NCBI GenBank assembly: GCA_903920005.1
Contig: CAIXKI010000156.1
Location: forward strand, 1,029-65,028
Source: an uncultured delta proteobacterium
GTDB lineage: Bacteria > Bdellovibrionota_C > UBA2361 > OMII01
Direction of reading: 5' to 3'
DNA length: 64,000 bases
Of the stretch, positions 5,395-58,334 are shown piece after piece. Numbering within the stretch: the first letter of the stretch is position 1; each line of letters begins with the position of its first letter. The notes under the pieces are model-generated. The model had not been told where the DNA came from. It was given only the letters and a program-made list of their open reading frames with translations, and did no database searches. The position numbers and the translations under genes are program-made.

Positions 5395-6576
5395 CTAGAC
5401 GTCAACAAGTACAGCGCCTGATGCGAGTAATCCCGAGAGGAGCTGCTGGCATCCTTTGTCGTTCAGGTACGCCTCGATATCCGCTATTGGAAGGACGAGT
5501 CGATTTGAAAGCTCCCTCGCGAGAGCAGCCGCTTTGCCCGAGAGTTCGTGACGTTCCCCGTTCACGTAAAACGCTAAGGAAGATCCACGCGTGGATATGA
5601 ACGCCATCCGAGAGCCTTCAGTTCGCACGAGTGCCGTCGCGCCACGAAGCGTTTTTGCGATCGCCGCCGCCGATATTTTGTGCGCGTGATCGAGTAGTTT
5701 TACATCAGAGTATGGCTCCGTTGTAGATCGTCCCAGCCAATCGCTGAGGAACTCCTCTGAGAGAAGAGCTTTCTCCAAGAGTCCCTTAATTTTTTTGACC
5801 GCATCCGGCGAGATCTCCCCCGGCTCCTGAGCCTTAAGCTCCGGGTCAGAATAGCGCAGCGACTCGTCAGTGCGCGATAACGCGCTTGAGGCCACCTCGT
5901 TAATGATGTCATTGACTGAAGGGGCTCGACATCCCACCGAGATCGTCATACATCGGTCGCCCTGCGCTACTCCGTGATGGGGGAAGCGGGGAGGAAGATA
6001 GAGGATGTCTCCAGGCTCAAGAATCCAACGGTGAGTCGGGTTAAATTTCTTCAGAAGCCGAACGGGAAGGTCTGGGATAAAATCGTCCGTAGGTACGGGC
6101 CGATCCTCGATCATCCATTCGCGTTTGCCGGATGCCTGAACGAGGAACACATCGAAGTTGTCGACGTGAGCGCCCACGTTTCCTTGATCGACAGCGTAGC
6201 TGATCATGACGTCGTCCATTCGCCAAAACGGGATGAATGAGAACTCATCGAGAAACGCATGCACTGATGGAACAAAGCGATCGACGCCGTTTACGAGAAC
6301 TGTCCACTTCTTCTTGGGGAGCTTCTTAAAGGTCGATGCCTTAAACGGGCCCCGTTGAAGTTGCCACTTATTTTTACCTGGGCCCTGAATAATGAGGCGG
6401 GACTCGATCCGTTCGTCCAAGCTCATCCCCGCGATCTCCTCGGGTGTTATGAGGTCAGGGAACGGATGAATGGCTTGCTTCATAAGCAAAGGCCGTTTTT
6501 GCCAGTAACGGGCCAAGAACTCCTTTTGAGAAATTCGTCCGAGAAGGGGCCAGGTGATTGCAGCGCGATGTGCCAT
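5395..6576 (-). CDS. roxA: JmjC/cupin ribosomal oxygenase (RoxA/YcfD-like, 50S L16 arginine hydroxylase family)
   Basis: 393 aa, collinear with E. coli YcfD by eye: FLARYWQKRPLL, DDVMISYAVDQGNVGAHVDNFDVFLVQASGKREW, PGDILYLPPRFPHHG. Confidence 0.8.
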   Translation of the reverse strand: MAHRAAITWPLLGRISQKEFLARYWQKRPLLMKQAIHPFPDLITPEEIAGMSLDERIESRLIIQGPGKNKWQLQRGPFKASTFKKLPKKKWTVLVNGVDRFVPSVHAFLDEFSFIPFWRMDDVMISYAVDQGNVGAHVDNFDVFLVQASGKREWMIEDRPVPTDDFIPDLPVRLLKKFNPTHRWILEPGDILYLPPRFPHHGVAQGDRCMTISVGCRAPSVNDIINEVASSALSRTDESLRYSDPELKAQEPGEISPDAVKKIKGLLEKALLSEEFLSDWLGRSTTEPYSDVKLLDHAHKISAAAIAKTLRGATALVRTEGSRMAFISTRGSSLAFYVNGERHELSGKAAALARELSNRLVLPIADIEAYLNDKGCQQLLSGLLASGAVLVDV

Positions 6577-7602: not shown

Positions 7603-8076
7603 TTACAATTTGTCGCCAGAGTCGTCGTTAGACGGACCTGAGGCTATGATTCCATTAGGGTCGAATGTTCCTTGCCCCGGTTGGACATCCATCGGTGGCG
7701 GATGGGGCAATGGAATGGGTGGTGGTGCAAATGGTGAAGTGCCAAGTTCTTGTACGCCACAGTCGTCCACCTTGATATCGTTGATAATCCTATTTGGTAG
7801 AGTTCCGTGGCTTGGTCTTTTGAGCGTAACCGTGCAACAGACATAGAACCCCCAGTGCCAACGGCCCGTTGTGTCTTCATCAATGAAATCTGGCGCTGGC
7901 ATTAGTTGCCCGTCGTTCATACACCAGACTTCTTGATATAGTGGAGTTCCTTTTGGGGCAGCCTGGGCGTCGATTGGGCCAATGCCTACAGTTCCAATGA
8001 GGGCGAGAGCGCCTATCAGGGTGCTTAAGCCCGGCCGAGTTTTGTTTTGCAGTTCTCTCGTTTTCAAATGCATCAT
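7603..8076 (-). CDS. secreted hypothetical protein (Pro-rich C-terminal half)
   Basis: 157-aa ORF with a signal-peptide-like N-terminus (LSTLIGALALIGTVGIGPIDAQAA). AAGGGAGAA lies about 9 nt upstream of the ATG. The overlapping plus-strand ORF 7508..7846 looks like a shadow ORF. Confidence 0.55.
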   Translation of the reverse strand: MMHLKTRELQNKTRPGLSTLIGALALIGTVGIGPIDAQAAPKGTPLYQEVWCMNDGQLMPAPDFIDEDTTGRWHWGFYVCCTVTLKRPSHGTLPNRIINDIKVDDCGVQELGTSPFAPPPIPLPHPPPMDVQPGQGTFDPNGIIASGPSNDDSGDKL

Positions 8077-31062: not shown

Positions 31063-32265
31063 GTGCCAGGTCATATTCCGGCTATGGGAACGGTTACTGA
31101 GGCATCTTTTGATTCGCACTTCCATCAGGACGATCGTAATGGATCTGAAAATCAGCACCTCGCTCAATTGGTGAATTCAATTTCAGAGTTATCCTTACCT
31201 CGGTTAGACTTTAATCAGTTGCTCCATGAACAGTTGGAAAAAGCAAAAGAGTTAAAGTCTCGAATTTTGGCTCCCCCAACGTTTGGTGAGCGGTTCTTGA
31301 ATTTAATAGAGGGTCCATGGGCGCCAGCGGCGCGTGACCTACCCGATCGGCGCGACCTGGCTGTCTCGAGACAGGAACTCACACCATTTCGGAAGCCATG
31401 TAGGGATAAATTAGACGTATCAGCTCGAATCGCTGTCAAACAACAGGTAGCCGCTAGCGAGCATAGGTGGCCTCTTACTCGTTGGAGCTCGGTGTATGAG
31501 TACGATGTGCCAATTCAAAAGCTTCCAAGGGACCTTCATGGTTTCACCGTTCTTCATCTCTCCGATATTCATTTCTTAAAAGGGTGTGAACGGCCGTGTG
31601 AAGAGCTCGCTCAAGTCGCGAAGTTTTTAGAAACTGGTAGAAGAAAGGTCGATTTGATTCTGCTGTCTGGCGATGTGATTACTCGCTCGCCCGAGGACCT
31701 CAACAAAGAGGCGTTACGACAGCTCCACCGAATGAGCGATGTCTGTCCCCAATCGTTTATGGTGTATGGAAATCATGACTATCACGGACACATGCCGGCG
31801 ATTATAAGCAAAAAACTTGAGGAGGTTGGATTTCATGACATTAACAACCACCACATCAAGCTGAAAATTGGGCAAGCCTCACTGAATCTTATAGGGGTGG
31901 ATGACGCGTATTTTGGAGATCCGACGCCGCCGACAGTCCTCGACAAAGATGGGATTAACATCGTATTGACTCATAATTTGGACGCTATTCGCGGTAATTT
32001 TCCCGCCGATGTCGATCTAATTCTCTCGGGACATACTCATTGGGGCGAAGTCAAGATCTTCGACGGCTCAAGTCTCATGCGTATCTGGGGATATTGCGAC
32101 AATATAAATAGTCACACGAAGCAATGGGATGTCCTCAGTGATCGAACTCTCTCCTTTGTTCATCCCGGATTAGCCCGCTATTACGTTCCATTTAGGGGTC
32201 TTCGACATCCGCCGGGTGTCGCGATTCATTCGCTCTATGCAGCCTCTCCAATAACGGAACTCTAA
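31063..32265 (+). CDS. calcineurin-like metallophosphoesterase, candidate PlcP-type phospholipase C
   Basis: All metallophosphoesterase blocks are present: HLSDIHF, LSGDVITR, YGNHDY, LTHNLD, LSGHTHWG. It sits directly upstream of btaA/btaB-like genes. An alternative start is the ATG at 31084. Confidence 0.65.
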   Translation: MPGHIPAMGTVTEASFDSHFHQDDRNGSENQHLAQLVNSISELSLPRLDFNQLLHEQLEKAKELKSRILAPPTFGERFLNLIEGPWAPAARDLPDRRDLAVSRQELTPFRKPCRDKLDVSARIAVKQQVAASEHRWPLTRWSSVYEYDVPIQKLPRDLHGFTVLHLSDIHFLKGCERPCEELAQVAKFLETGRRKVDLILLSGDVITRSPEDLNKEALRQLHRMSDVCPQSFMVYGNHDYHGHMPAIISKKLEEVGFHDINNHHIKLKIGQASLNLIGVDDAYFGDPTPPTVLDKDGINIVLTHNLDAIRGNFPADVDLILSGHTHWGEVKIFDGSSLMRIWGYCDNINSHTKQWDVLSDRTLSFVHPGLARYYVPFRGLRHPPGVAIHSLYAASPITEL

Positions 32266-32275
32266 AAGGAGAGAA

Positions 32276-33484
32276 ATGGTTGGGATTCAACAGGTATCTG
32301 ACACGGTAGCGAACACGGTATTTTCCTGGGTTCATCGTCGCAACTTAATGTACAACACCTGTTGGGAAGACCCCGCAATCGATAGGTTAGCGTTAGAGCT
32401 ATCAGAAAAGGATCGACTACTCGTAATTAGCAGCGCCGGGTGTAATGCCCTGGACTACCTCCTGGCGGGTTGCGGTGAAGTGCACGCCGTCGACATGAAC
32501 TTCATTCAAAACGCCTTACTCGAATTAAAGCAGGCCGCAATACTTACTCTGGAGTATCGAGATTTTGAGAAGTTCTTTGGCCACGGGCGACATGAACAAG
32601 CGTCATCGGTATATCAGAGATCAATCCGCCCAATGTTAAGTCAAGGCGCTCGCGCATATTGGGATAAATACATTTATTTTTTCAGTGGAACCGGCTGGCG
32701 AGATTCTTTCTATTATAGAGGATGTTCGGGGTTTCTCGCGAAGTTCCTCTTAACAAACCTGTTTAGGGTCAAAGCTCTTCAAAAACCTCTTGAAGACCTT
32801 GTAAACGCCGACTCTTTAGAGCGCCAGTCCGAGATTTATTACGCTGAGATAAAGCCTCGACTGTGGACTCGATGGATGGAGTGGTTAATCAGCCGGGACC
32901 TTACCATGAACCTCATGGGAGTCCCGCGAGCGCAAAAAGAGCAGATGACTCAGCAATATCCGGGCGGTGTACCCAAGTACATTGAGCACAGTCTTGAAGA
33001 CGTTCTCACGAAACTTCGATTTAGGGATAACTACTTTTATCGGGTATATATTGAGGGTCGTTATCCTCACGATTGTCGACCCGAGTACGTTAAAGAGCAC
33101 AATTTTGATCGCCTTAGGCAGCGAATCTCGGACCTTCATATACACACCGGAACAGTCGCCAATATCCTTGAAGAAACGGACCTTCGGTTCTCTCGTTTTG
33201 TACTGCTTGATCATATGGATTGGATGAGTGTTCATAAACCTCAAGAGCTTGTTCGTGAGTGGAACGCTATACTATTTCAGGCTACCTCGAATGCGCGAGT
33301 AATCTATCGGAGTGCAGCGCTGAACGTGACATACCTCGATGATCTGATAGTCAACGTTTCAGGCGCGCGTTGCCCACTTGGGGCTGCGCTGACCCAGCGG
33401 CGCGACCTGGCGAACTCGCTTCACCCATCTGATCGTGTACACACCTACGCGAGTTTTTACATAGCGGATTTACCGGAACAATGA
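32276..33484 (+). CDS. btaA: DUF3419 / BtaA-like S-adenosylmethionine:diacylglycerol 3-amino-3-carboxypropyl transferase
   Basis: 402 aa. The N-terminal NTCWEDPAIDRLALEL..DRLLVISSAGCNALDYLL..EVHAVDMN..QNALLELK is the DUF3419/BtaA signature as I recall it. Confidence 0.75.
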   Translation: MVGIQQVSDTVANTVFSWVHRRNLMYNTCWEDPAIDRLALELSEKDRLLVISSAGCNALDYLLAGCGEVHAVDMNFIQNALLELKQAAILTLEYRDFEKFFGHGRHEQASSVYQRSIRPMLSQGARAYWDKYIYFFSGTGWRDSFYYRGCSGFLAKFLLTNLFRVKALQKPLEDLVNADSLERQSEIYYAEIKPRLWTRWMEWLISRDLTMNLMGVPRAQKEQMTQQYPGGVPKYIEHSLEDVLTKLRFRDNYFYRVYIEGRYPHDCRPEYVKEHNFDRLRQRISDLHIHTGTVANILEETDLRFSRFVLLDHMDWMSVHKPQELVREWNAILFQATSNARVIYRSAALNVTYLDDLIVNVSGARCPLGAALTQRRDLANSLHPSDRVHTYASFYIADLPEQ

Positions 33485-34227
33485 GCGCGCGCGCTTTCAT
33501 AGATGAGTTTAAAACTATAATGCACCTCACTCTTCCTAAACGATATGGCGATAGGCAGAGTGATAGGCTCGACGCTTTCTATGCCGAGCAGAGCTCGTCC
33601 TATGATTTATTTCGAGACCGACTCTTGCATGGCCGAGAGCAGTTGATGCGGGCCATTCCGGTGCCAACCGGTGGTAGTCTCGTTGATATGGGTGGAGGTA
33701 CTGGGCGAAACCTCGAGTGGCTTGGAGAGCGATTAGTCTCTGTCGCCTCTGTGACCGTCGTTGATTTATGCGCGTCACTGCTGCATATCGCGGACCAACG
33801 AATTAGGAGTAATGGATGGCAAAACGTAAGAACACGGCTCGCTGATGTAACAACGTACGCTCCGCCTGAAGGCCTTGTTGACGCCGTTACCTTTTCGTAC
33901 TCACTTACCATGATCCCGAATTGGTTTGATGCCGTCGAGAACGCCTACGCCATCCTGAAGCCAGGTGGTTATATTGGAGTCGTTGATTTCTATGTATCGG
34001 ACAAATGGCCTAACGAGGGCATGGTCCGGCATTCGGGATTTTACCGGAATTTTTGGCCTGCCTGGTTTGGGTACAGTAACGTCTTTCTCAATCCGGACCA
34101 CCTCACGTATCTCCGTCGGCTTTTTGAGATGATTAGACTCGATGAAAAGAAGGGCAAAGTGCCCTACCTTCCAGGATTAAAAGCCCCGTTTTACCTCTTT
34201 GTCGGGAGAAAGCCTTTCTCGGTTTGA
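33481..34227 (+). CDS. btaB: BtaB-like SAM-dependent N-methyltransferase
   Basis: Its ATGA start overlaps the btaA stop. LDAFYAEQSSSYDLFRDRLLHGREQLM...LVDMGGGTGRNLEWL resembles BtaB (YD.tR...L.GRd.L...GTGrNL). Confidence 0.7.
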   Translation: MSARAFIDEFKTIMHLTLPKRYGDRQSDRLDAFYAEQSSSYDLFRDRLLHGREQLMRAIPVPTGGSLVDMGGGTGRNLEWLGERLVSVASVTVVDLCASLLHIADQRIRSNGWQNVRTRLADVTTYAPPEGLVDAVTFSYSLTMIPNWFDAVENAYAILKPGGYIGVVDFYVSDKWPNEGMVRHSGFYRNFWPAWFGYSNVFLNPDHLTYLRRLFEMIRLDEKKGKVPYLPGLKAPFYLFVGRKPFSV

Positions 34228-34271
34228 AGAACGAAATGGGGGATGGTTGTTTACCGTTACTCCAGTCGTCC

Positions 34272-35159
34272 TTAGAACTTTCCAGCAGCCTCATACACAC
34301 GAGCTGGAGGCACTCGAAGGTTCCACACGATTCCAAACCATGAAAGTACGGTGAGGATATAATGCGAGATGTCGATCTCCCACCAATAGAAACCTTGGCG
34401 CTCAGAGCCAGGGTAGTAGTGGTGGTTGTTGTGCCAACCCTCACCGAGAGTAATAAGCGCGAGCAGGAGATTATTCCGGCTGTGATCCGTTGAAGGGAAT
34501 CGTCGCTTACCAATCAAGTGGGTGAAAGAGTTGATACAGAACGTTCCGTGATACAGAAGCACTGTGCTGATGAAGAAGCCCCACGTCAGCATCTGCAAGC
34601 CATTAGTTCCCAGAGTAGGGAACGCATGTTCAAGATAGACACCAAGGAAGAATGTTCCCACTGCAAGGAGGACCGGTGGGACCAAGTTGTACTTCTCGAG
34701 CCAACGAAGCTCAGGGAATCGAAGAAGGTCTTTTACCAACTCAAGGCGTGGTTCAACGAATTGAGAGCTTAATACCCATCCGATATGGGCGAAGTAAATC
34801 CCTTGCACGATTGGGGAGTGAATATCCTCCTCTGTATCGGAGTGTCGATGATGGTGTCGGTGGTGTGAGGCCCACCAGATTGGGCCCTTTTGAGCCGCGG
34901 TGGTTCCGAGTACAGCGAAGAGGAATTGAACTACACGGCTCGTCTCGTACGACCGGTGCGAGAAGTATCTGTGGTAGATGCCCGTAATGGCGAACATACG
35001 AATGACGTAGAGACTGAGGCAAACAACCACCGCTACCCAACTTACCCCAACCCACAACGCGAGGAGGCAGGCGAGGTGAACAGACCAGAACACTCCCTGC
35101 TTAACGAGATTAATCCACTCAAATTGTTCGTCAGTTGCTACTGCATCGCCGTGGTACAT
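34272..35159 (-). CDS. acyl-CoA/acyl-lipid delta-9 fatty acid desaturase
   Basis: Three His boxes (HRYFSHRS, HHRHHHRHSD, HNNHH) and four TM helices. The start was chosen at the ATG at 35159 (AGAGGA RBS); the track ORF extends to a TTG at 35222. Confidence 0.85.
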   Translation of the reverse strand: MYHGDAVATDEQFEWINLVKQGVFWSVHLACLLALWVGVSWVAVVVCLSLYVIRMFAITGIYHRYFSHRSYETSRVVQFLFAVLGTTAAQKGPIWWASHHRHHHRHSDTEEDIHSPIVQGIYFAHIGWVLSSQFVEPRLELVKDLLRFPELRWLEKYNLVPPVLLAVGTFFLGVYLEHAFPTLGTNGLQMLTWGFFISTVLLYHGTFCINSFTHLIGKRRFPSTDHSRNNLLLALITLGEGWHNNHHYYPGSERQGFYWWEIDISHYILTVLSWFGIVWNLRVPPARVYEAAGKF

Positions 35160-35618
35160 AACCCAAAAGTCCTCTTTCAAAATTCGACAGCGGATCGTTA
35201 CACGACGGTGAAACTTGAACAAGTCTTGGGGGCTTAAGAGGGTAGGGTTTGGGTGTTTTAAGTGTTGGTTAGTCGGTTCTATTACACATAAATGCCAGTT
35301 TCGTCCCAGGTATAATCGTAGAACCTGGTTTACCTAACGAAACCCTTCAATCCCTACCTCTTGAGTCTAGCTGGACCGCCATACCTCCGCAGGCCTCGCA
35401 TACTACTAACTAGGTATAGGCCCGATCCATGATCTTTGGCGGGTATGCGTGGCGTCGAGGACTCCTCGCTGGGCCGAGGCATCCCGGGAGCTAGATGAAA
35501 TTAAAGGCGTGAGATCTGCCGCTTTTGCTCAAGCGGTGAAGCATCTGCCCTCCCTGCTGACATGCATCAACACACTGCCAGAGGGAGGAGCTCGATACAT
35601 ATGTCGACGGAGCGAAGC

Positions 35619-36005: not shown

Positions 36006-36557
36006 AGTGTATTAGGTCCTCCATTAGACAAAGGTAAATAGTAACGTACAAATGAACGAGAAAATGTGCACACGGTCGTGCGGACTTTAATAATTAATTC
36101 AATCTGATTTGGGCGCAGAAGATGCCCTGAGGGTGCTGGAAGTATCGAGGTGTGATTGACGTTTGGGACCGTGGGGCCTCCTTACACGATTTATAGCTTT
36201 AGTATATCAGGCCATTATCCTAATCACCAAGTACTATTTTTCTGGCCCGATTCAAGAGTTCTAATGTTATGGGTTGGTTAGCGTGGGAGTCGCTCGGTTG
36301 GGCGTCGCGACAGGTGCTCGTTATTCGGGCATTCCGGTCACGGGTGGGAAGCTCATTGGCGAGCCCCCCAGAGCGCGATGACCTGATTCAGGTTCTCTGT
36401 TTGCTGGATCAGGGGGTGCAAAAGGTTTCTGCCCTCTATAGCGCAAGACTTGGACCTTCTTTGATGTGTTAGAAGACGAGAAGATAAAGCAGTTGGAGCT
36501 GTCCGCCCCCTAAAGCGGTCGATACCTTTGCCCGTGTATATGGTGACATTGAAAAAG

Positions 36558-36633
36558 TGGAGCCGCCCATGGGAGTCGAACCCACGACCCCATCATTACG
36601 AATGATGTGCTCTACCAACTGAGCTAGGGCGGC
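36558..36633 (-). tRNA. tRNA-Thr (anticodon CGU), CCA encoded
   Basis: The reverse complement is GCCGCCCTAGCTCAGTTGGTAGAGCACATCATTCGTAATGATGGGGTCGTGGGTTCGACTCCCATGGGCGGCTCCA. It has a 7-bp acceptor stem, D arm GCTC/GAGC, anticodon stem CATCA/TGATG with loop TTCGTAA, and a GTTCGA T-loop. Confidence 0.92.
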
Positions 36634-36745
36634 GTCGTTTGCGGACCGATCTTTTATATAGACGCTTGGACGGCATCGATCGATCCGCGAAAAGTGACCA
36701 TCGCTGGTCACTGTGCCGATTGTATACCTAGTATTAAACACGTTT

Positions 36746-37819
36746 TCAATTGGCCGTTTGACCCTTCGGATGGGGCACTACGCCCAAAATGAGCGAGTAC
36801 ATACGGCACATGACGAAGATAACGATGTATGGCCCGGTTATTTCGGGAACAATGTCTCCGTCGAGGAAGCACCGTATCGCGCAGGTTGCTAAGCACGCTG
36901 AGGCAATGATCTGAGAACAGGCCAGCTTCCTAAGGGGTAGCAGGTTATCTGCAAGTCGATGCGAGGAGGGGATTGATATCGCGAAGCTAAAAATCTGAGG
37001 AACTAGTGTTGGGTCGCTGTCCATACCCCGACCCTTCAACACGAAGTGAGAGCCCTTGAAAAGGTGACGTATCTTTAGGATGAGTCGATACTCAAATGGC
37101 AGGGTCTCAAGGAACGTAGGGTAAAGGTTTATTCGGATTTTATATCGTCCGATATCGCCGGTTACACGAATCTCGGAGATGTGTGCGAGGGAGACGCTTC
37201 CGAATTCGATAATATGCAGAGAGTTTTGAGACACCACGAGAATGGGGCGATGGAGGAAGAATAAGGCGCTGTTTCGAAGTATTTCAGAGGCGCCTCGGCT
37301 GGCGAGCAAAATTGCGATGATGAGATGAATGGGCGGTGTGGCCTCTATGTACGAGTAGATGAGGTACGAAAGAGCGATCGCGAGACATCCCTTCAGCGTG
37401 CGTAGGACCGCAAATGCGCCGGTTTGAAAAAAGCTCTTTTGAAAGGTGACGTTCTCGGCCGTAAACGGGTGTGTGAAATGAGCGCGGGAGCCCTCCTCCT
37501 CATAATCGTCTTCGTCCCAATCGTCGCGATAATCTTGATAGCTGTTTGGTTGTGACGACGGACGAGAGTTCCCGGAGGAGCGCTCTAAAGCTTCCAGAGA
37601 GGAGCCTGCCGGAATGTTTTTAAAGATTTTCCGCAGATGACTTACCGCCTCGTTGATCTTACGGGTACTCTCCTCTGCCTTTTGTTTGAGATTTTGATCG
37701 GACTGAAAGCGATCCGGGTGCCAGACCCTTACCAGGTCCTTATAGGCCTGGTTAGCGTCCTCAAGGGTCGCTCTGGGGGAGAGCCCTAAAACTCGTAAGC
37801 TTTCAGCGGTCGTTGTCAT
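36746..37819 (-). CDS. J-domain (DnaJ-like) membrane protein
   Basis: N-terminal J domain with HPD (AYKDLVRVWHPDRF), an acidic linker (DDWDEDDYEEE), then TM helices and a C-terminal domain of unknown function. Confidence 0.75.
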   Translation of the reverse strand: MTTTAESLRVLGLSPRATLEDANQAYKDLVRVWHPDRFQSDQNLKQKAEESTRKINEAVSHLRKIFKNIPAGSSLEALERSSGNSRPSSQPNSYQDYRDDWDEDDYEEEGSRAHFTHPFTAENVTFQKSFFQTGAFAVLRTLKGCLAIALSYLIYSYIEATPPIHLIIAILLASRGASEILRNSALFFLHRPILVVSQNSLHIIEFGSVSLAHISEIRVTGDIGRYKIRINLYPTFLETLPFEYRLILKIRHLFKGSHFVLKGRGMDSDPTLVPQIFSFAISIPSSHRLADNLLPLRKLACSQIIASACLATCAIRCFLDGDIVPEITGPYIVIFVMCRMYSLILGVVPHPKGQTAN

Positions 37820-37995
37820 GCTACTCTGGTATTGCCCAGTATTTGTGCGGCGTTACCTCAAATAGCTTCGTTTTACCGAGGGGTGTGAAACCACACAGGT
37901 TTGTTTACTTTGTTCTACCATTTAGTGCTCTCTGGTGTGTTTACACCTCACGTGGTACCATGATGTTACATTAAAGCGATACGTAAGGGCATTTT

Positions 37996-38880
37996 GTGGG
38001 AAATGAAATACTTTCTAAGTTGAGACATTCCTATGCGGATGCTGTCTTAAGCGGTAGTTCTGAGGAAGCTTCTCGCATAATCGACCAAGGGCTCGCAGGC
38101 GGTGTCATTCCATCGAAGATCTATCTTGAGGTGTTGATGCCCGTGCAGATAGAGCTTGGGGCTAAATGGCATCGGGGCGAGATATCAATTCCGCAGGAGC
38201 ACATCGCGACGCAAATTACGCTTCGTCAGATGGCACGGCTCAAATCACTCTTAAAGACTCGGCTTCGTTTGGGTCTTAAGGCGGTCGTAAGTTCAGTCGA
38301 GGGAGACCAACACTTCATCGGCGCGCAGGCCGTTGCTGATTTTCTTTCCGTTGATGGATGGGAGGTCGATTTCCTCGGCGCGGATGTTCCAACCGACCAC
38401 CTGGTGCCATACACGAAGGCGCGTCAATCGCACCTTGTGTGTGTATCGGTGTCGCTCACCTCTCTTATTCCCGTAGCCGAGAAGTTGATTCAGGAGCTCA
38501 AGAAGATCGATCCAGCCCCAAAGATACTGATTGGTGGAGCCGCGTTTGTGTTGAATCCAGCTCTTGCTGAAAAGGTGGGAGCAGATGCTTATACACCAGA
38601 TCCGCAGCAGGCCGTTGTCACCGCTCGGCAGGTATGTGGCCTTATGAATGCTGAAAATCAGCTCGGTGTTTTTCTTCGTAAGCTCGGACACTCAGTTCAC
38701 GAATATCGAAAGATTCGGGGGTTTAGTCAGCAGGAGCTCGCGACTACCTCAGACCTTGATCGCGCCTACATCAGCGCGGTGGAACACGGTAAGCAAAACA
38801 TCAGCATCGGCGCTATTTCAAAACTCGCGAAGGCGCTCCACGTCTCGATCGAAGAGCTGTTGATAGGGGCGGAGTATTAG
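37996..38880 (+). CDS. cobalamin-binding (CarH-like light-sensor module) protein with a C-terminal XRE-family HTH
   Basis: ELGAKWHRGEISIPQEH gives W-x9-EH in the helical B12-binding_2 region. VEGDQHFIG gives the DxHxxG lower-ligand motif. The C-terminal IRGFSQQELATTSDLDRAYISAVEHGKQNISIGAISKLAKAL is a Cro/C1 HTH. GTG start with AAGGG upstream. Confidence 0.8.
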   Translation: MGNEILSKLRHSYADAVLSGSSEEASRIIDQGLAGGVIPSKIYLEVLMPVQIELGAKWHRGEISIPQEHIATQITLRQMARLKSLLKTRLRLGLKAVVSSVEGDQHFIGAQAVADFLSVDGWEVDFLGADVPTDHLVPYTKARQSHLVCVSVSLTSLIPVAEKLIQELKKIDPAPKILIGGAAFVLNPALAEKVGADAYTPDPQQAVVTARQVCGLMNAENQLGVFLRKLGHSVHEYRKIRGFSQQELATTSDLDRAYISAVEHGKQNISIGAISKLAKALHVSIEELLIGAEY

Positions 38881-38882
38881 CA

Positions 38883-39182
38883 ATGGTTTCGATTCAACGC
38901 TTTATCACACTCGGTCGCTGGGAAGGAACTTCTCTCCTTTTGCTGATGGGCGTGGCCATGCCGCTCAAGTATATGTTTGATTACCCAGCGGCTGTGCGCG
39001 TTGTTGGTATGGTGCACGGTATACTGTTTCTTGCCTATTGCGCGGCGGCTTTACTTGTCGCTCGTAAAGAACAGTGGGGAATATCGAAGCTTGCGCGCTG
39101 TTTAATAGCGTCGTGTCTTCCCTTCGGCACGTTTGTCTTTGAGCGCGAGTTGCGAGCTCAATCTCACATCACTCCTCGGTAG
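38883..39182 (+). CDS. DUF3817-family small membrane protein
   Basis: 99 aa. LGRWEGTSLLLLMGVAMPLKYMF...GMVHGILFLAY...SCLPFGTF fits the DUF3817 pattern. It starts 2 nt after the upstream stop codon. Confidence 0.65.
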   Translation: MVSIQRFITLGRWEGTSLLLLMGVAMPLKYMFDYPAAVRVVGMVHGILFLAYCAAALLVARKEQWGISKLARCLIASCLPFGTFVFERELRAQSHITPR

Positions 39183-39204
39183 ATGGGCCTTTTGAGAAGC
39201 GTGG

Positions 39205-40179
39205 CTAGGGCTTCGTTCCAACCACGGCAGCCGTATGAGGCGCCGGGTGGCCCTCGACCGTCTTGCTCGGATCGCTGGGATCCAGAAAGTCCGCGAGGCT
39301 CTCATACGGGGAGAGTGGCGTTCGTCGCTGCTCTGTAGTGCTTAAGGGGCCGAATGTATGAAGCCTAACGTCCTTGAAGCCGACCTGGTGGAATAGGTCC
39401 TCCATGGATGAGGGGCTCGGTATCGTCCAAGCGTTACGCATCTTTGCGTACCTATCCGGGGCGATGATTTTTAGTGGCTCTGGTTGATTGACCACAAGGC
39501 TCTCAAGGACCACCGTGCCTCCTGGACGCACAGAGTCATAGAGCTGCTTCACCGCGGCGAGGTGGTCGCGTTGGTGATACAGCACTCCCATGCAGAGCAC
39601 TAGATCGAAGAACTGCGGGAAGGCGGTAAGCGACAAGAGCCCCATGGGCAGGAACGCGGTATTTCGAATTCCCAACAGCTTGTGAAGGAACGCGAACTGT
39701 AACCAGCAACGCTCAATTGGATCAAATCCAACCGCGATTTCAGGTTCGAGTTTTGACAGTTTGAAGAGGAAGTAGCCGTTACTACAGCCGACATCCGCGA
39801 TGCGCATACCCTCGCGTTTTGGGAGAAGCGCAGAGATGCGCGACCATTTCATGAAGGATTGCCACTCGGAATCGATGCAGTACGAACCGATCTGATAAGG
39901 TCCTGTGCGCCACGGAAGCAGCGCGCTACAGAGCTGGTCTACATGAGAAAGACCGCATGCTGGGACCGTAATGACATCTCCGGCAGTATCCGCCGGGCCT
40001 TGTGGTATATAGAAGCCAATTGAGCGTTGAAGCTCTTTTCGGATCTCATTCCAATGGCGCGAGCCTCGGAGTAAGCGCCACGCTCTCTTTGTTTCTTGAA
40101 TGACGCTTGCGAGATCGCATTCCCCCTTATACGGATGGAGAGGGTCTATCGTTGACAGAAGTAGAGAAGAGTTCGCCAC
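39205..40179 (-). CDS. cmoB: tRNA U34 carboxymethyltransferase
   Basis: Collinear with E. coli CmoB by eye: LLPWRTGPY, IDSEWQS..KW, IADVGCSNGY, MGVLYHQRD, PDRYAKMRNAWTIPS, TTEQRRT...ESLADFLDPSDPSKTVEGHPAP. GTG start. Confidence 0.92.
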   Translation of the reverse strand: MANSSLLLSTIDPLHPYKGECDLASVIQETKRAWRLLRGSRHWNEIRKELQRSIGFYIPQGPADTAGDVITVPACGLSHVDQLCSALLPWRTGPYQIGSYCIDSEWQSFMKWSRISALLPKREGMRIADVGCSNGYFLFKLSKLEPEIAVGFDPIERCWLQFAFLHKLLGIRNTAFLPMGLLSLTAFPQFFDLVLCMGVLYHQRDHLAAVKQLYDSVRPGGTVVLESLVVNQPEPLKIIAPDRYAKMRNAWTIPSPSSMEDLFHQVGFKDVRLHTFGPLSTTEQRRTPLSPYESLADFLDPSDPSKTVEGHPAPHTAAVVGTKP

Positions 40180-56096: not shown

Positions 56097-56378
56097 CATG
56101 AATTTTGGCGACCATCGGCCCTCCACGCATCTTTACCTACCCGACCACCGAGTGTCCGGGTATCATCTGTAGCAGGGTGGTAACAAATGATTTCCTGTAG
56201 AGCATTTCGATAGTTTGACTGCGACTTCATTGGAGCCAACGAAAAAATCCTCAACGTATCTCAGAGAATACGCTTCCGTTTTTTCGTCGTCTCCGCCTTG
56301 TTTCGTCACAACTCTCAAAATGCTCACGACGGAACTATTTTTCATCCCCCTGCCAAGGCGTACAAGCGAAAACGATCA

Positions 56379-58334
56379 ATGAAGCTCCGCATACGATCCT
56401 ATTATTTTAGTTCCGCGCTCCTCCTTGGATTCTCGGCGCTCAGCATCCCAATCCTGGCACTCGTGGTCTGCGTCGCCTACATAAAAAACTCGTCTTCAGC
56501 GCGAGAACTTCTCAAAAACGACATTGCCGACTCAGAGCGGATCACTAGTCATTCTATAACAAAACTCTTTACTCAGGCAGGTGCAGCAGCAAAGGGCCTT
56601 GCTGAGATCGCCGCGAGCCATCCCAACTTCTTCTCGGAGCCGGAAAGCCAGTCCGTCCTCCACTCGACGCTAGCAGTCGTTAACCATCTAGGAGGCATCT
56701 ACCTCACCCTTGAAGATGGCTCCGTGCGAGCTGCAACCCGCATCGACAACACACGTAGGTCGGAGCAGCCCGAGATCCCACAAAACGCGCTGTGGCAAAC
56801 CTATTTCACAGACCCGGTTGTCGAGGGGGCCCCACAGATGCGCCACCAAACCTTCTTCGCGGATTGGCCCACTCCCTTATCCACTCTTACGAGCACATCC
56901 CCCTTCGACGCGAGGCTTCACACCAGCTACGTCGAGGCGAAGAAGAGGCATAAGCTTTTCATTTCGGATCCAACCATTAACGCCCTCGGAGGCTCAAGCG
57001 TCATCACTCTTGCGGCCCCGATTCTTCAGGGGGAAGAATTCCTCGGCGCGATCTCTGCCAACTTTGCAATTGACGAGGTCTCTAAATTCCTAGCTGACAA
57101 CAGGGTAAGTCCAAATAGCGTCACTGTAATCATCGATCACGCTAACCAGCTCATCGCACCACCTCTTGTTGGTGAAACCGCTATGGATCCTACCCTGCGA
57201 AAGAAATTAGATGGAGTTATACTTCATGCCGAAATCCTCACTCGAGAGGCTCAAGGAAGCTCCGAGAACTCAAGCGAGGGGGCCGTTACCTTCCTCGCGG
57301 ATATCGATAACGTCGCCAGTTCCGTATCTATCATACGACTTCCAAGCAGCTTAGGACTACGGTGGCGCGCCGTAACCATCGTCCCAGAGGATGATTATAT
57401 TGGGCCTCTTCGCTCAACGAATACACTCCTTCTTTGGCTTCTCTCCGTTATTCTCCCCCTTGAGTGGCTGATGATACGCTGGCTATCGCAAAAACTATCG
57501 CGAGGAATCACCTGTATCTCTTCTGAGTTAGACAGAGTCCGGAAGATGGACTTCAACCCGACATCGCTGTCGCAAAAGGAACACCCTATTCATGAGGTCG
57601 CAGAGCTTCACCGTGGCGTGGATCTCCTTGAGAGCGCGCTCCGTTCCTTTGCCCAATACATCCCGATGGGAATCGTTCGCCAGTTGGCCGAGAGCGGGAG
57701 GCCTCTTGCTCTCGGCGTTGAACGGCGAGAGCTCTCGGTGATGTTTACCGATCTTGAGAACTTCTCCACACTGGCTGAGAAGCTCCCTCCTGATGAGCTG
57801 CTGTCGCTCCTCTCGCAGTTCTTCTCGGCCGCCACAGAGGTTATCGCCGAGGAGCGAGGCACCGTTGATAAATTTATCGGTGATGCCGTGATGGCGTTCT
57901 GGGGCGCCCCTATCGAAGTGGGAGAACACGAACTCAGGGCTTGCAGGGCGGCCCTGAGGCTCTCCCATCGAATTCAAGTACTCAACGCACAACGAGCCAA
58001 AGAGCGTAGAAGCCCTATTCACATCAGGATTGGATTGAACTCAGCAGAGGTCCTCGTTGGCAATATCGGTTCAACAGAGCGTCTGAGCTACACCGCTATC
58101 GGCGATGGAGTCAATGTTGCTTCACGGCTCGAGGGTATTAACAAACAATTCGGAACCATCATCTGCATTAGCGACAGCATCTACGCCCGAGTAGCGGATA
58201 AGATCGTAGCCCGCCCCCTCGAAGAGATCTCCGTCAAAGGTCGTCGGGGTTCGTTTATGGTGTATGAACTTTTAGGAGTTCGCGGTAGCGAAGATGTCGA
58301 ACTCGCCCCACCAAATATACCGGTGAATGCCTAG
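56379..58334 (+). CDS. class III adenylate/guanylate cyclase with an extracytoplasmic Cache-like sensor and HAMP linker
   Basis: TM1, then a ~300-aa periplasmic domain, TM2, a HAMP-like segment, and the catalytic domain (LSVMFTDLENFSTLAE...VDKFIGDAVMAFWGAP...IRIGLNSAEVLVGNIGS..RLSYTAIGDGVNVASRLE). The start was trimmed to MKLRIRS. Confidence 0.85.
   Translation: MKLRIRSYYFSSALLLGFSALSIPILALVVCVAYIKNSSSARELLKNDIADSERITSHSITKLFTQAGAAAKGLAEIAASHPNFFSEPESQSVLHSTLAVVNHLGGIYLTLEDGSVRAATRIDNTRRSEQPEIPQNALWQTYFTDPVVEGAPQMRHQTFFADWPTPLSTLTSTSPFDARLHTSYVEAKKRHKLFISDPTINALGGSSVITLAAPILQGEEFLGAISANFAIDEVSKFLADNRVSPNSVTVIIDHANQLIAPPLVGETAMDPTLRKKLDGVILHAEILTREAQGSSENSSEGAVTFLADIDNVASSVSIIRLPSSLGLRWRAVTIVPEDDYIGPLRSTNTLLLWLLSVILPLEWLMIRWLSQKLSRGITCISSELDRVRKMDFNPTSLSQKEHPIHEVAELHRGVDLLESALRSFAQYIPMGIVRQLAESGRPLALGVERRELSVMFTDLENFSTLAEKLPPDELLSLLSQFFSAATEVIAEERGTVDKFIGDAVMAFWGAPIEVGEHELRACRAALRLSHRIQVLNAQRAKERRSPIHIRIGLNSAEVLVGNIGSTERLSYTAIGDGVNVASRLEGINKQFGTIICISDSIYARVADKIVARPLEEISVKGRRGSFMVYELLGVRGSEDVELAPPNIPVNA

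Follow-up and report, generated by a model that had tools for sequence, protein, structure and literature searches.

A predicted light-sensing B12 repressor with a C-terminal XRE domain in an uncultured Bdellovibrionota genome

A 64,000-nt stretch of an uncultured delta proteobacterium assigned to Bdellovibrionota_C (contig CAIXKI010000156.1, positions 1,029 to 65,028; hereafter the window, with coordinates counted from its first letter) contains a gene for a 294-aa protein in which a cobalamin-binding domain (CBD) of the kind found in the light-responsive repressor CarH is followed by a C-terminal helix-turn-helix (HTH) of the XRE (Cro/C1) class. This CBD-XRE regulator is probably an adenosylcobalamin (AdoCbl)-dependent, light-sensitive transcriptional repressor belonging to an experimentally uncharacterised family. 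The initial annotation of the window had proposed a CarH-type AdoCbl module with a C-terminal XRE HTH replacing the N-terminal MerR domain, and this architecture was borne out by every test available. The features of the gene, with their evidence including alignment to the Thermus CarH (TtCarH), were as follows.

37996–38880, + strand: CBD-XRE regulator gene, 294 aa, GTG start, with B12-binding_2, B12-binding and HTH_3 domains (open reading frame, translation, Pfam, AlphaFold2 model)
37985–89, + strand: Shine-Dalgarno AAGGG of the regulator gene (sequence)
38023–38244, + strand: B12-binding_2 four-helix bundle, residues 10–83 (Pfam, E 1.5e-15)
38158–38172, + strand: G55-x-x-W58-H59 of the adenosyl-pocket motif W-x9-EH (alignment to TtCarH)
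38197–38202, + strand: E68-H69 of the adenosyl-pocket motif W-x9-EH (alignment to TtCarH)
38278–38592, + strand: Rossmann-type B12-binding domain, residues 95–199 (Pfam, E 1.9e-20)
38311–38313, + strand: lower axial His106 in G-D-Q-H-F-I-G (aligned to TtCarH H177)
38650–38859, + strand: linker helix, residues 219–240, and Cro/C1-type HTH_3, residues 235–288 (Pfam, E 3.8e-13; DSSP of the model)

Domain architecture and distribution of the family

The three Pfam domains for which an hmmscan check had been proposed (B12-binding_2, B12-binding and HTH_3) were all detected in the regulator, far over their gathering scores. All peptide strings quoted in the initial annotation were found in the 294-aa reading frame, namely ELGAKWHRGEISIPQEH (residues 53–69), VEGDQHFIGAQ (101–111), GADVP, LVCVSVS, LIGG and the HTH string. 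The register of the Trp, Glu and His residues with CarH had been set beforehand as a possible refuter of the assignment. In a phmmer comparison with TtCarH (5C8A) these residues were in register, and LMPVQIELGAKWHRGEISIPQEHIATQI was paired without gaps through the chromophore pocket, with W58-H59 corresponding to W131-H132, E68-H69 to E141-H142, H106 to H177 and GADVP to GPDTP. The segment D104-Q-H106-F-I-G109 pairs with ERHEIG of TtCarH, and the base-off/His-on motif (D/E)-x-H-x-x-G is present. The same register was seen against the photoreceptors SasPcob (8J2W/X) and CtMerR (8JBS), which were the top PDB sequence matches (E 8e-22 to 5e-16) and were followed by TtCarH; 8J2Y was also matched.

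All four signatures of light-responsive CBDs were present, as G55AKW58 (GxxW), E68H69 (EH), G103DQH106 (GxxH) and G128ADVP132 (GxxxP), a set that has been validated as dividing photoreceptor from enzymatic CBDs (Yu et al., SignatureFinder, PMC11796333). Across 65 diverse homologs (37–86 % identity), G55, W58, H69, H106 and P132 were invariant and E68 was more than 90 % conserved. An AlphaFold2 (AF2) model built on 65 diverse homologs, with a mean predicted local distance difference test (pLDDT) score of 91, was used for the structural check that had been proposed. The modelled fold matched those of CarH-type photoreceptor CBDs in Foldseek, superposing on the CBDs of CtMerR and TtCarH (TM-target 0.80–0.86, root-mean-square deviation 2.4–3.0 Å) and on the photocobilin CBD too. 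His59 occupies the position of TtCarH H132, the histidine that forms the bis-His light state. On domain identity, motif register and predicted fold, residues 1–210 are a CarH-type photoreceptor cobalamin-binding module.

No MerR domain was found in the regulator by Pfam, and the HTH_3 match at residues 235–288 marks its sole DNA-binding domain, with further Pfam HTH matches to HTH_31, HTH_19 and HTH_26. The model has five helices in this part (219–240, 245–252, 256–263, 271–281 and 285–290, by DSSP), helix 1 of the HTH being extended into a connector of ~20 residues to the sensor module, and the protein ends 4–6 residues past the HTH with no additional dimerisation module. The recognition region, LDRAYISAVEHGKQNIS, is almost invariant across phyla, and R256, Y258, E263, G265, Q267 and N268 were invariant in the 65 homologs. 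The best solved matches for residues 226–290 were the restriction-modification controller (C) proteins C.AhdI, C.BclI and C.Esp1396I, together with other small XRE repressors (E 2e-9 to 1e-6). The best NCBIfam match of the CBD was TransRegCarH, which aligned to positions 83–265 of the 274-position model, leaving out the part of that model which covers DNA binding, and scored 70.6 bits against a cut-off of 400. With no MerR domain and a CarH score far below its cut-off, the regulator is best placed outside the CarH/LitR family sensu stricto.

The database search that had been proposed for this architecture showed it to recur across several phyla, in ~190 clusters at 50 % identity. An exhaustive phmmer search of 1.84 billion 50 %-identity representatives gave 194 matches at E≤1e-30, and ~140 of the best 150 matches aligned end to end. 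The nearest relatives are metagenome-assembled genomes (MAGs) of freshwater Bdellovibrionota, with ~27 species-level genomes encoding proteins 66–94 % identical to the regulator and the closest, locus L001 from Lake Mendota, at 94 %. A large protein collection gave 294 matches; among the 120 listed, identities ranged from 72 to 100 %, almost all proteins were ~294 aa long and most were unnamed. Proteins of 36–50 % identity with this architecture and length occur in Dehalococcoidia, in Candidatus Uabimicrobium amorphum (Planctomycetota), in MAGs of Fraserbacteria and of a lineage labelled Thermotogae, and in a Caldilineaceae MAG; the family is found in Chloroflexota, Planctomycetota, Fraserbacteria and others. 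A profile of the distant members recovered at least 449 further 90 %-identity clusters, all of ~285–330 aa and with the same domains. The regulator is a member of a conserved, widespread family and not an oddity.

Source annotations of these proteins are generic, such as ‘cobalamin-dependent protein’, ‘helix-turn-helix domain-containing protein’ and, at JGI, ‘methanogenic corrinoid protein MtbC1 / XRE regulator’. Signature-positive CBDs are reported fused to HTH domains at both termini, with only MerR-type and photocobilin proteins characterised (Yu et al., PMC11796333), and complex CBD architectures have been described without functional characterisation (Zhang et al.). No characterised CBD-XRE protein, operator or regulon was found in the literature, of which coverage was partial, so that this absence is no proof.

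Predicted operators and gene clusters

The upstream regions of 25 Bdellovibrionota regulator genes were aligned on a conserved extended −10 block (TGnTAnnnT). Dyad symmetry, autocorrelation and scoring with a position weight matrix (PWM) gave the following features at the window promoter.

37953–37961, + strand: promoter-like extended −10 (TGg TACCAT) of the regulator gene (conserved TGnTAnnnT block in 25 loci; conservation only)
37902–37919, + strand: putative operator O0, TGTTTACTTTGTTCTACC (31-bp autocorrelation with O1 in 25 loci; PWM 10.0–10.3 bits, depending on background)
37933–37950, + strand: putative operator O1, TGGTGTGTTTACACCTCA (strongest dyad centre; best PWM match in the 64 kb, 16.2 bits)
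37964–37981, + strand: putative operator O2, TGTTACATTAAAGCGATA (second-strongest dyad centre; second-best PWM match in the window, 14.2 bits)

Between −35 and +35, dyad symmetry was strongest at two centres, −14.5 and +16.5, 31 bp apart. The O1 18-mer (−23 to −6) resembled the 18-mers at exactly +31 and −31, with 8.5–8.7 of 18 positions matching against a background of 4.58 ± 0.76 at 412 other offsets. O0, O1 and O2 share the consensus TGTtG.aTTtAt.CAaCA, an 18-bp TGT-N12-ACA pseudo-palindrome; O1 sits between the −35-like TGGTGT and the −10 of the regulator promoter, and O2, 31 bp further on, overlies the predicted transcription start. In a scan of the 64-kb window and other Bdellovibrionota loci, pairs of sites 30–32 bp apart with scores of at least 7 bits were found only upstream of the regulator. 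Arrays were also seen in held-out loci that had taken no part in PWM training, with three sites in L003 and four in L027. We infer from these patterns that O0–O2 form the cognate operator array of the regulator. The suggestion that reversed domain order and a different HTH class would couple B12 photochemistry to DNA by a different geometry finds indirect support in predicted 18-bp pseudo-palindromes phased at 31–32 bp, unlike the CarH operator.

Several other candidates were rejected. A long inverted repeat, GTATTTATACA-N19-TGTATAAATAC in L019, was replaced as the operator by two or three separate pseudo-palindromic 18-mers, which fit better because autocorrelation gave 31-bp periodicity in both directions. 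The palindrome GTGTGAAACCACAC at 37883–37896 in the divergent spacer (a perfect GTGTG-AAAC-CACAC, then a T-rich stretch, and called terminator-like) was set aside as a fourth site, not being conserved in the closest relative L001, which has a different 8-nt inverted repeat (TGTAGGAC...GTCCTACA) at that position of the spacer. Single PWM matches at 40001, 44422, 21202 and 34627 lie inside genes and have no phased partner, and were treated as chance rather than as regulon members.

Because the recognition region is nearly invariant, the regions upstream of distant homologs were also searched. Loci L028, L029, L033, L040 and L041 have in common a cassette, TTGACA-N4-[CGTAGAATATGTATAACA]-N14-[TGTCAAATATATTCTACA], made up of two 18-mers that approximate the palindrome formed by the half-sites TGTAGAATA and TATTCTACA; their centres are 32 bp apart and they overlap the TTGACA and −10 boxes. 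A rightward promoter has its −10 under the first 18-mer, and a leftward TTGACA-N17-TATA(T/C)A promoter has TGTCAA from the second as its −35. On this layout the cassette is a compact bidirectional promoter blanketed by two predicted operators. The same two 18-mers occur in Ca. Uabimicrobium with centres 33 bp apart. The distant half-site TGTAGAATA resembles the Bdellovibrionota half-site TGTtG.aTT, and the recognition helices differ by one residue, RTY against RAY.

A scan of the distant loci with the perfect palindrome gave 3–4 matches per locus with at most three mismatches, against 0.005–0.02 in shuffles. Site groups in L040 lie at 1661/1693/1725, between DUF2878 and DUF1475-SDR; at 5603/5635, between RudS and a 283-aa gene; and at 7886/7917/7949, between a 230-aa gene and the regulator. 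Equivalent sites were found in L041 and L028, and the cassette stands at two to three cluster promoters in each of these three loci. The cluster encodes RudS (2-thiouracil desulfidase and DUF1722), an SRPBCC protein, DUF1365-CFA synthase (cyclopropane-fatty-acid synthase, CMAS), an amine oxidase, DUF2878, an SDR protein and an epimerase/DUF1731 protein. RudS genes have been reported in light-responsive operons under LitR (PMC11417400), and in V. cholerae blue light induces CFA synthase (PMC5241685). Because the predicted operators front a RudS/CFA-synthase cluster linked to light in the literature, the CBD-XRE protein of the L040, L041 and L028 lineages, on present predictions, takes the regulatory place that belongs elsewhere to MerR-type LitR/CarH. 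This photo-oxidative-stress cluster under predicted operators is the strongest independent argument that the family would sense light. It also overturns, for the family, the expectation that the light-controlled output would be new, the operators of other phyla fronting a familiar cluster.

The best operator-like palindromes of L040 and L041 (TGTAGAATATGTTCAACA, with two mismatches to the perfect palindrome) lie inside the regulator coding sequence, ~410 nt past its start (L040:8411–8428 and L041:8411–8428), with counterparts at L028:6387–6404, L029:6393–6410 and L033:6411–6428. The L029 site stays palindromic (TGTCGAATTTATACGACA) despite a different peptide, LVEFIRQ rather than LVEYVQQ. These intragenic palindromes are like lac O2 inside lacZ; no counterpart in the window's regulator gene was present among the top PWM matches. 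In the Dehalococcoidia locus L033, cobT (DBI_PRT) and cobS directly follow the regulator on the same strand (L033:6956–8742), which suggests that some family members may control B12 lower-ligand assembly.

Neighbouring genes in the Bdellovibrionota clade

The range 37996–39182 takes in two genes, the regulator to 38880 and a DUF3817 gene from 38883, and the regulator faces a divergent J-domain gene.

38883–39182, + strand: DUF3817 small membrane protein gene, 99 aa (Pfam, E 1e-27; also NCBIfam)
36746–37819, − strand: J-domain membrane protein gene, divergent (Pfam DnaJ, HPD motif, several hydrophobic segments)
37829–37857, − strand: putative conserved promoter-like element of the J gene, GGTAAC-N17-CAATAC on the reverse complement, 9 nt before the ATG (26 upstream regions compared)

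The coordinates agreed with the initial annotation both for the DUF3817 ATG, 2 nt past the regulator stop, and for the divergent J-domain gene across a 176-bp spacer (37820–37995). Co-transcription of DUF3817, which had been suggested from the short gap, is probable in the window, but the gene is lineage-specific and not a conserved output. It adjoins the regulator only in the window, in the identical contigs L036–38 and in L001, where it lies ~120–140 nt away, and is absent from ~25 other Bdellovibrionota loci. This restricted occurrence rules it out as a conserved output and therefore marks DUF3817, from its distribution, as a recent lineage-specific passenger. Most other Bdellovibrionota loci have a convergent cmoB directly after the regulator; CmoB and ApaG (DUF525) were dismissed as functional partners, being convergent or downstream and associated by synteny only. 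Small membrane proteins recur beside family members, DUF3817 in the window being another case. In two Dehalococcoidia loci the divergent neighbour is a small membrane protein of ~70 aa (MEIIQIIAIVLAAVGALNWG...; L032:~5700–5900 and L033:~5600–5900), which presumably resembles DUF378.

Of the 25 loci with upstream sequence, 24 have the J-domain membrane protein gene divergently upstream of the regulator, L003 being the one that lacks it. Identity of the J-domain protein between subclades is only 24–30 %, with the closest relative L001 as the exception. Equivalents of its promoter-like element, G(G/T)NAAC-N17-CA(A/T)TA(C/T), were found in ~20 loci, possibly recognised by an alternative sigma factor. 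The −10-like box ends only 8–9 nt before the J-gene ATG, which suggests a leaderless mRNA. Of the proposed shared control region, then, the conserved divergent arrangement was confirmed. A conserved promoter-like element belongs to the J gene alone and lies 43 bp from the nearest predicted operator, O0, so that joint control is no more than a possibility. In the L020–L024 subclade the O0 position coincides with the −35 of the J gene. The J-domain gene is thus a possible target of the regulator.

In the annotated parts of the window no carotenoid genes were found, as the initial annotation had said, and no photolyase or CFA-synthase genes or cobalamin riboswitch. Between rsfS and the J-domain gene the window has only a tRNA-Thr(CGU) gene (36558–36633, in the interval 36006–36745), whereas L036 carries ~7.7 kb inserted there (L036:1647–8026; FG-GAP, DHOR and three periplasmic-binding-protein genes). 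The insert-bearing metagenome contigs encode a regulator 100 % identical to that of the window, and this is strain-level variation adjoining the locus. Two further regions of the window are unrelated to the regulator. At 31063–35222, metallophosphoesterase, DUF3419, class I methyltransferase and convergent fatty-acid desaturase genes are grouped, of which we take the DUF3419 and methyltransferase pair to resemble BtaA/BtaB betaine-lipid synthesis, and at 56298–58334 there is a 678-aa dCache-domain adenylate/guanylate cyclase, a signalling protein.

Mechanism, alternatives and relation to known systems

In the light-dependent repressor model, His106 would act as the lower axial ligand of AdoCbl, and Trp58, Glu68 and His69 would cap its 5'-deoxyadenosyl group. 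In the dark, AdoCbl would drive oligomerisation, most likely to a CarH-like dimer of head-to-tail dimers (a tetramer), and the oligomer would pair the HTHs, each pair reading one 18-bp TGT-N12-ACA pseudo-palindrome. Two or three sites phased at 31–32 bp, that is three helical turns and on one face of the DNA, would be bound cooperatively across −35, −10 and +1, and the bound array would block RNA polymerase and hence transcription. Light would cleave the Co–C bond, probably with subsequent His59 ligation to give a bis-His adduct, and the oligomer would dissociate; with cooperative binding lost, the promoter would be derepressed. The only array within reach in this Bdellovibrionota genome is at the regulator's own promoter (O0–O2, 37902–37981), which points to the regulator itself, with the probably co-transcribed DUF3817, as the sequence-supported target.

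Several observations weigh against this model. AdoCbl binding, photolysis, oligomeric state and DNA-binding state are argued for family members by analogy. His59 is not conserved outside the Bdellovibrionota clade, and light-state chemistry may for this reason differ among members. No photoprotective genes were found near the regulator in the Bdellovibrionota clade, where the only array found is autoregulatory, and the cobT-cobS pair after the regulator in L033 fits B12 homeostasis equally well. In the window, O0 and O2 are weak palindromes (5/9 pairs in O2), and a consensus promoter scan of 36600–39400 gave no sigma-70 promoter. Conservation is the basis of the −10 and −35 assignments, and the conserved signal could partly reflect the promoter rather than an operator.

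An unlikely alternative is a sensor of cobalamin availability that represses when AdoCbl is plentiful and derepresses when it is scarce, like a cobalamin riboswitch, with light sensitivity incidental. CarH-type repressors require B12 to repress, and this need makes any CarH-like member report B12 status in the dark. The cobT and cobS genes of L033 lie downstream of the operator pair, and no photoprotective genes adjoin the regulator in the window. However, only a single locus showed the cobTS association. The genes fronted by the operators at three distant loci are those of the photo-oxidative-stress cluster and not B12 genes, and the W-x9-EH/GxxW signature, by which photoreceptor CBDs are told apart from those of enzymes and corrinoid carriers (PMC11796333), is conserved throughout the family. 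Recruitment of a non-photoreceptive domain for ligand binding, such as a corrinoid carrier of the MtbC/MtgC kind, which would make the JGI name the closer one, is very improbable. NCBIfam scores for MtbC (67.5 bits), pyl_corrinoid (64.4) and MtgC (62.7) are near the 70.6 bits for CarH, and Foldseek also returned the MtmC and MetH cobalamin domains with similar E-values. The carrier cut-offs are 215–370 bits, however, and all these scores, that of CarH included, are far under the family cut-offs of 215–400 bits. Photoreceptor CBDs were the best sequence matches, with W, E and H in register and invariant or nearly so, and no methyltransferase partners of the MtbC/MtmC/MttC/MtgC kind were found in any neighbourhood examined.

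Reversed logic or another stoichiometry, in which the HTHs dimerise on their own and DNA is bound in both states while the B12 module modulates cooperativity or acts as an activator switch, for example by activating the divergent J-domain gene from O0 in a light-dependent way, seems to us decidedly unlikely. It draws on the likeness of the HTH to C.AhdI, C.BclI and C.Esp1396I, its closest solved relatives, since C proteins, which are constitutively dimeric, occupy paired operators and are able to activate as well as to repress. O0 is also upstream of the J-gene promoter-like element and not over it, with coincidence at the −35 in L020–L024. The positions of O1 and O2 speak for repression instead, bracketing the −10 and start site in the window and covering −10 and −35 in distant loci. 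The end of the protein 4–6 residues past the HTH leaves no extra dimerisation module, and the strict 31–32-bp phasing argues for a pre-assembled multimer. The light-dependent repressor thus remains the reading that we favour.

Compared with class I CarH/LitR proteins (Thermus, Myxococcus, Bacillus; PDB 5C8A/D/E/F, 8C31), the regulator has the same two sensor domains, W-x9-EH, the His after Trp and the lower axial His in register, with fold agreement at TM ~0.85. Regulation probably follows the same logic, in that an oligomer formed with AdoCbl in the dark represses and is released by light, with photoprotective genes and their own gene controlled by family members. CarH/LitR proteins carry an N-terminal MerR winged helix, whereas the regulator has a C-terminal Cro/C1 HTH. 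Their operator differs as well: CarH binds tandem direct repeats, reportedly three of 11 bp, in contrast to the predicted 18-bp pseudo-palindromes at 31–32-bp phasing. By sequence and by structure, the CBD is matched best by CtMerR (Chloracidobacterium thermophilum, 8JBS/8JBT) and the photocobilins SasPcob and AbDPcob (8J2W–Y), whose CBDs were found by the GxxW/EH/GxxH/GxxxP signature and are experimentally light-responsive (PMC11796333, PMC10979010). CtMerR retains an N-terminal MerR domain, and photocobilins have a biliverdin-binding globin and enzyme outputs but lack a DNA-binding domain; neither has a His after Trp, whereas the regulator has His59 as in TtCarH.

The C proteins and other small XRE repressors (SinR, DdrO, HipB) share the RTYIS..E.G recognition region with the regulator. 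C proteins work by cooperative binding to two neighbouring palindromic sites that overlie a promoter, but they have no sensor domain and their sites are contiguous within ~35 bp rather than three turns apart. The AerR/PpaA antirepressors use a cobalamin-binding module of the same superfamily in light-dependent gene control; with no DNA-binding domain themselves, they act via CrtJ/PpsR, whereas the regulator has an HTH and predicted cognate operators. The B12-dependent light-responsive transcription factors characterised so far, as far as we found, all have an N-terminal MerR domain (CarH/LitR, CtMerR).

We regard it as an even call whether the CBD-XRE proteins form a separate phylum-spanning lineage of B12 photoreceptor repressors, in which a CarH-type sensor fused to a controller-like HTH at the opposite end reads three-turn-phased arrays of 18-bp palindromes, including bidirectional cassettes and an intragenic operator, and which in predatory Bdellovibrionota has been stripped to an autoregulated module beside a membrane J-domain co-chaperone. 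On that reading, the light response in predatory Bdellovibrionota would have an output unlike carotenoid or photolyase induction. A second and independent coupling of AdoCbl photochemistry to DNA binding, with a different DNA-binding fold, the opposite terminus and an operator grammar different from that of CarH, would show how far the switch is portable. For optogenetics it would also provide a green-light repressor that is compact (294 aa), has a predicted operator and is orthogonal to CarH. The comparisons supply specific DNA targets, predict a regulon in several uncultured phyla and give a phasing rule of 31–32 bp; operator and regulon seem not to have been predicted before. The findings also suggest light sensing by freshwater Bdellovibrionota.

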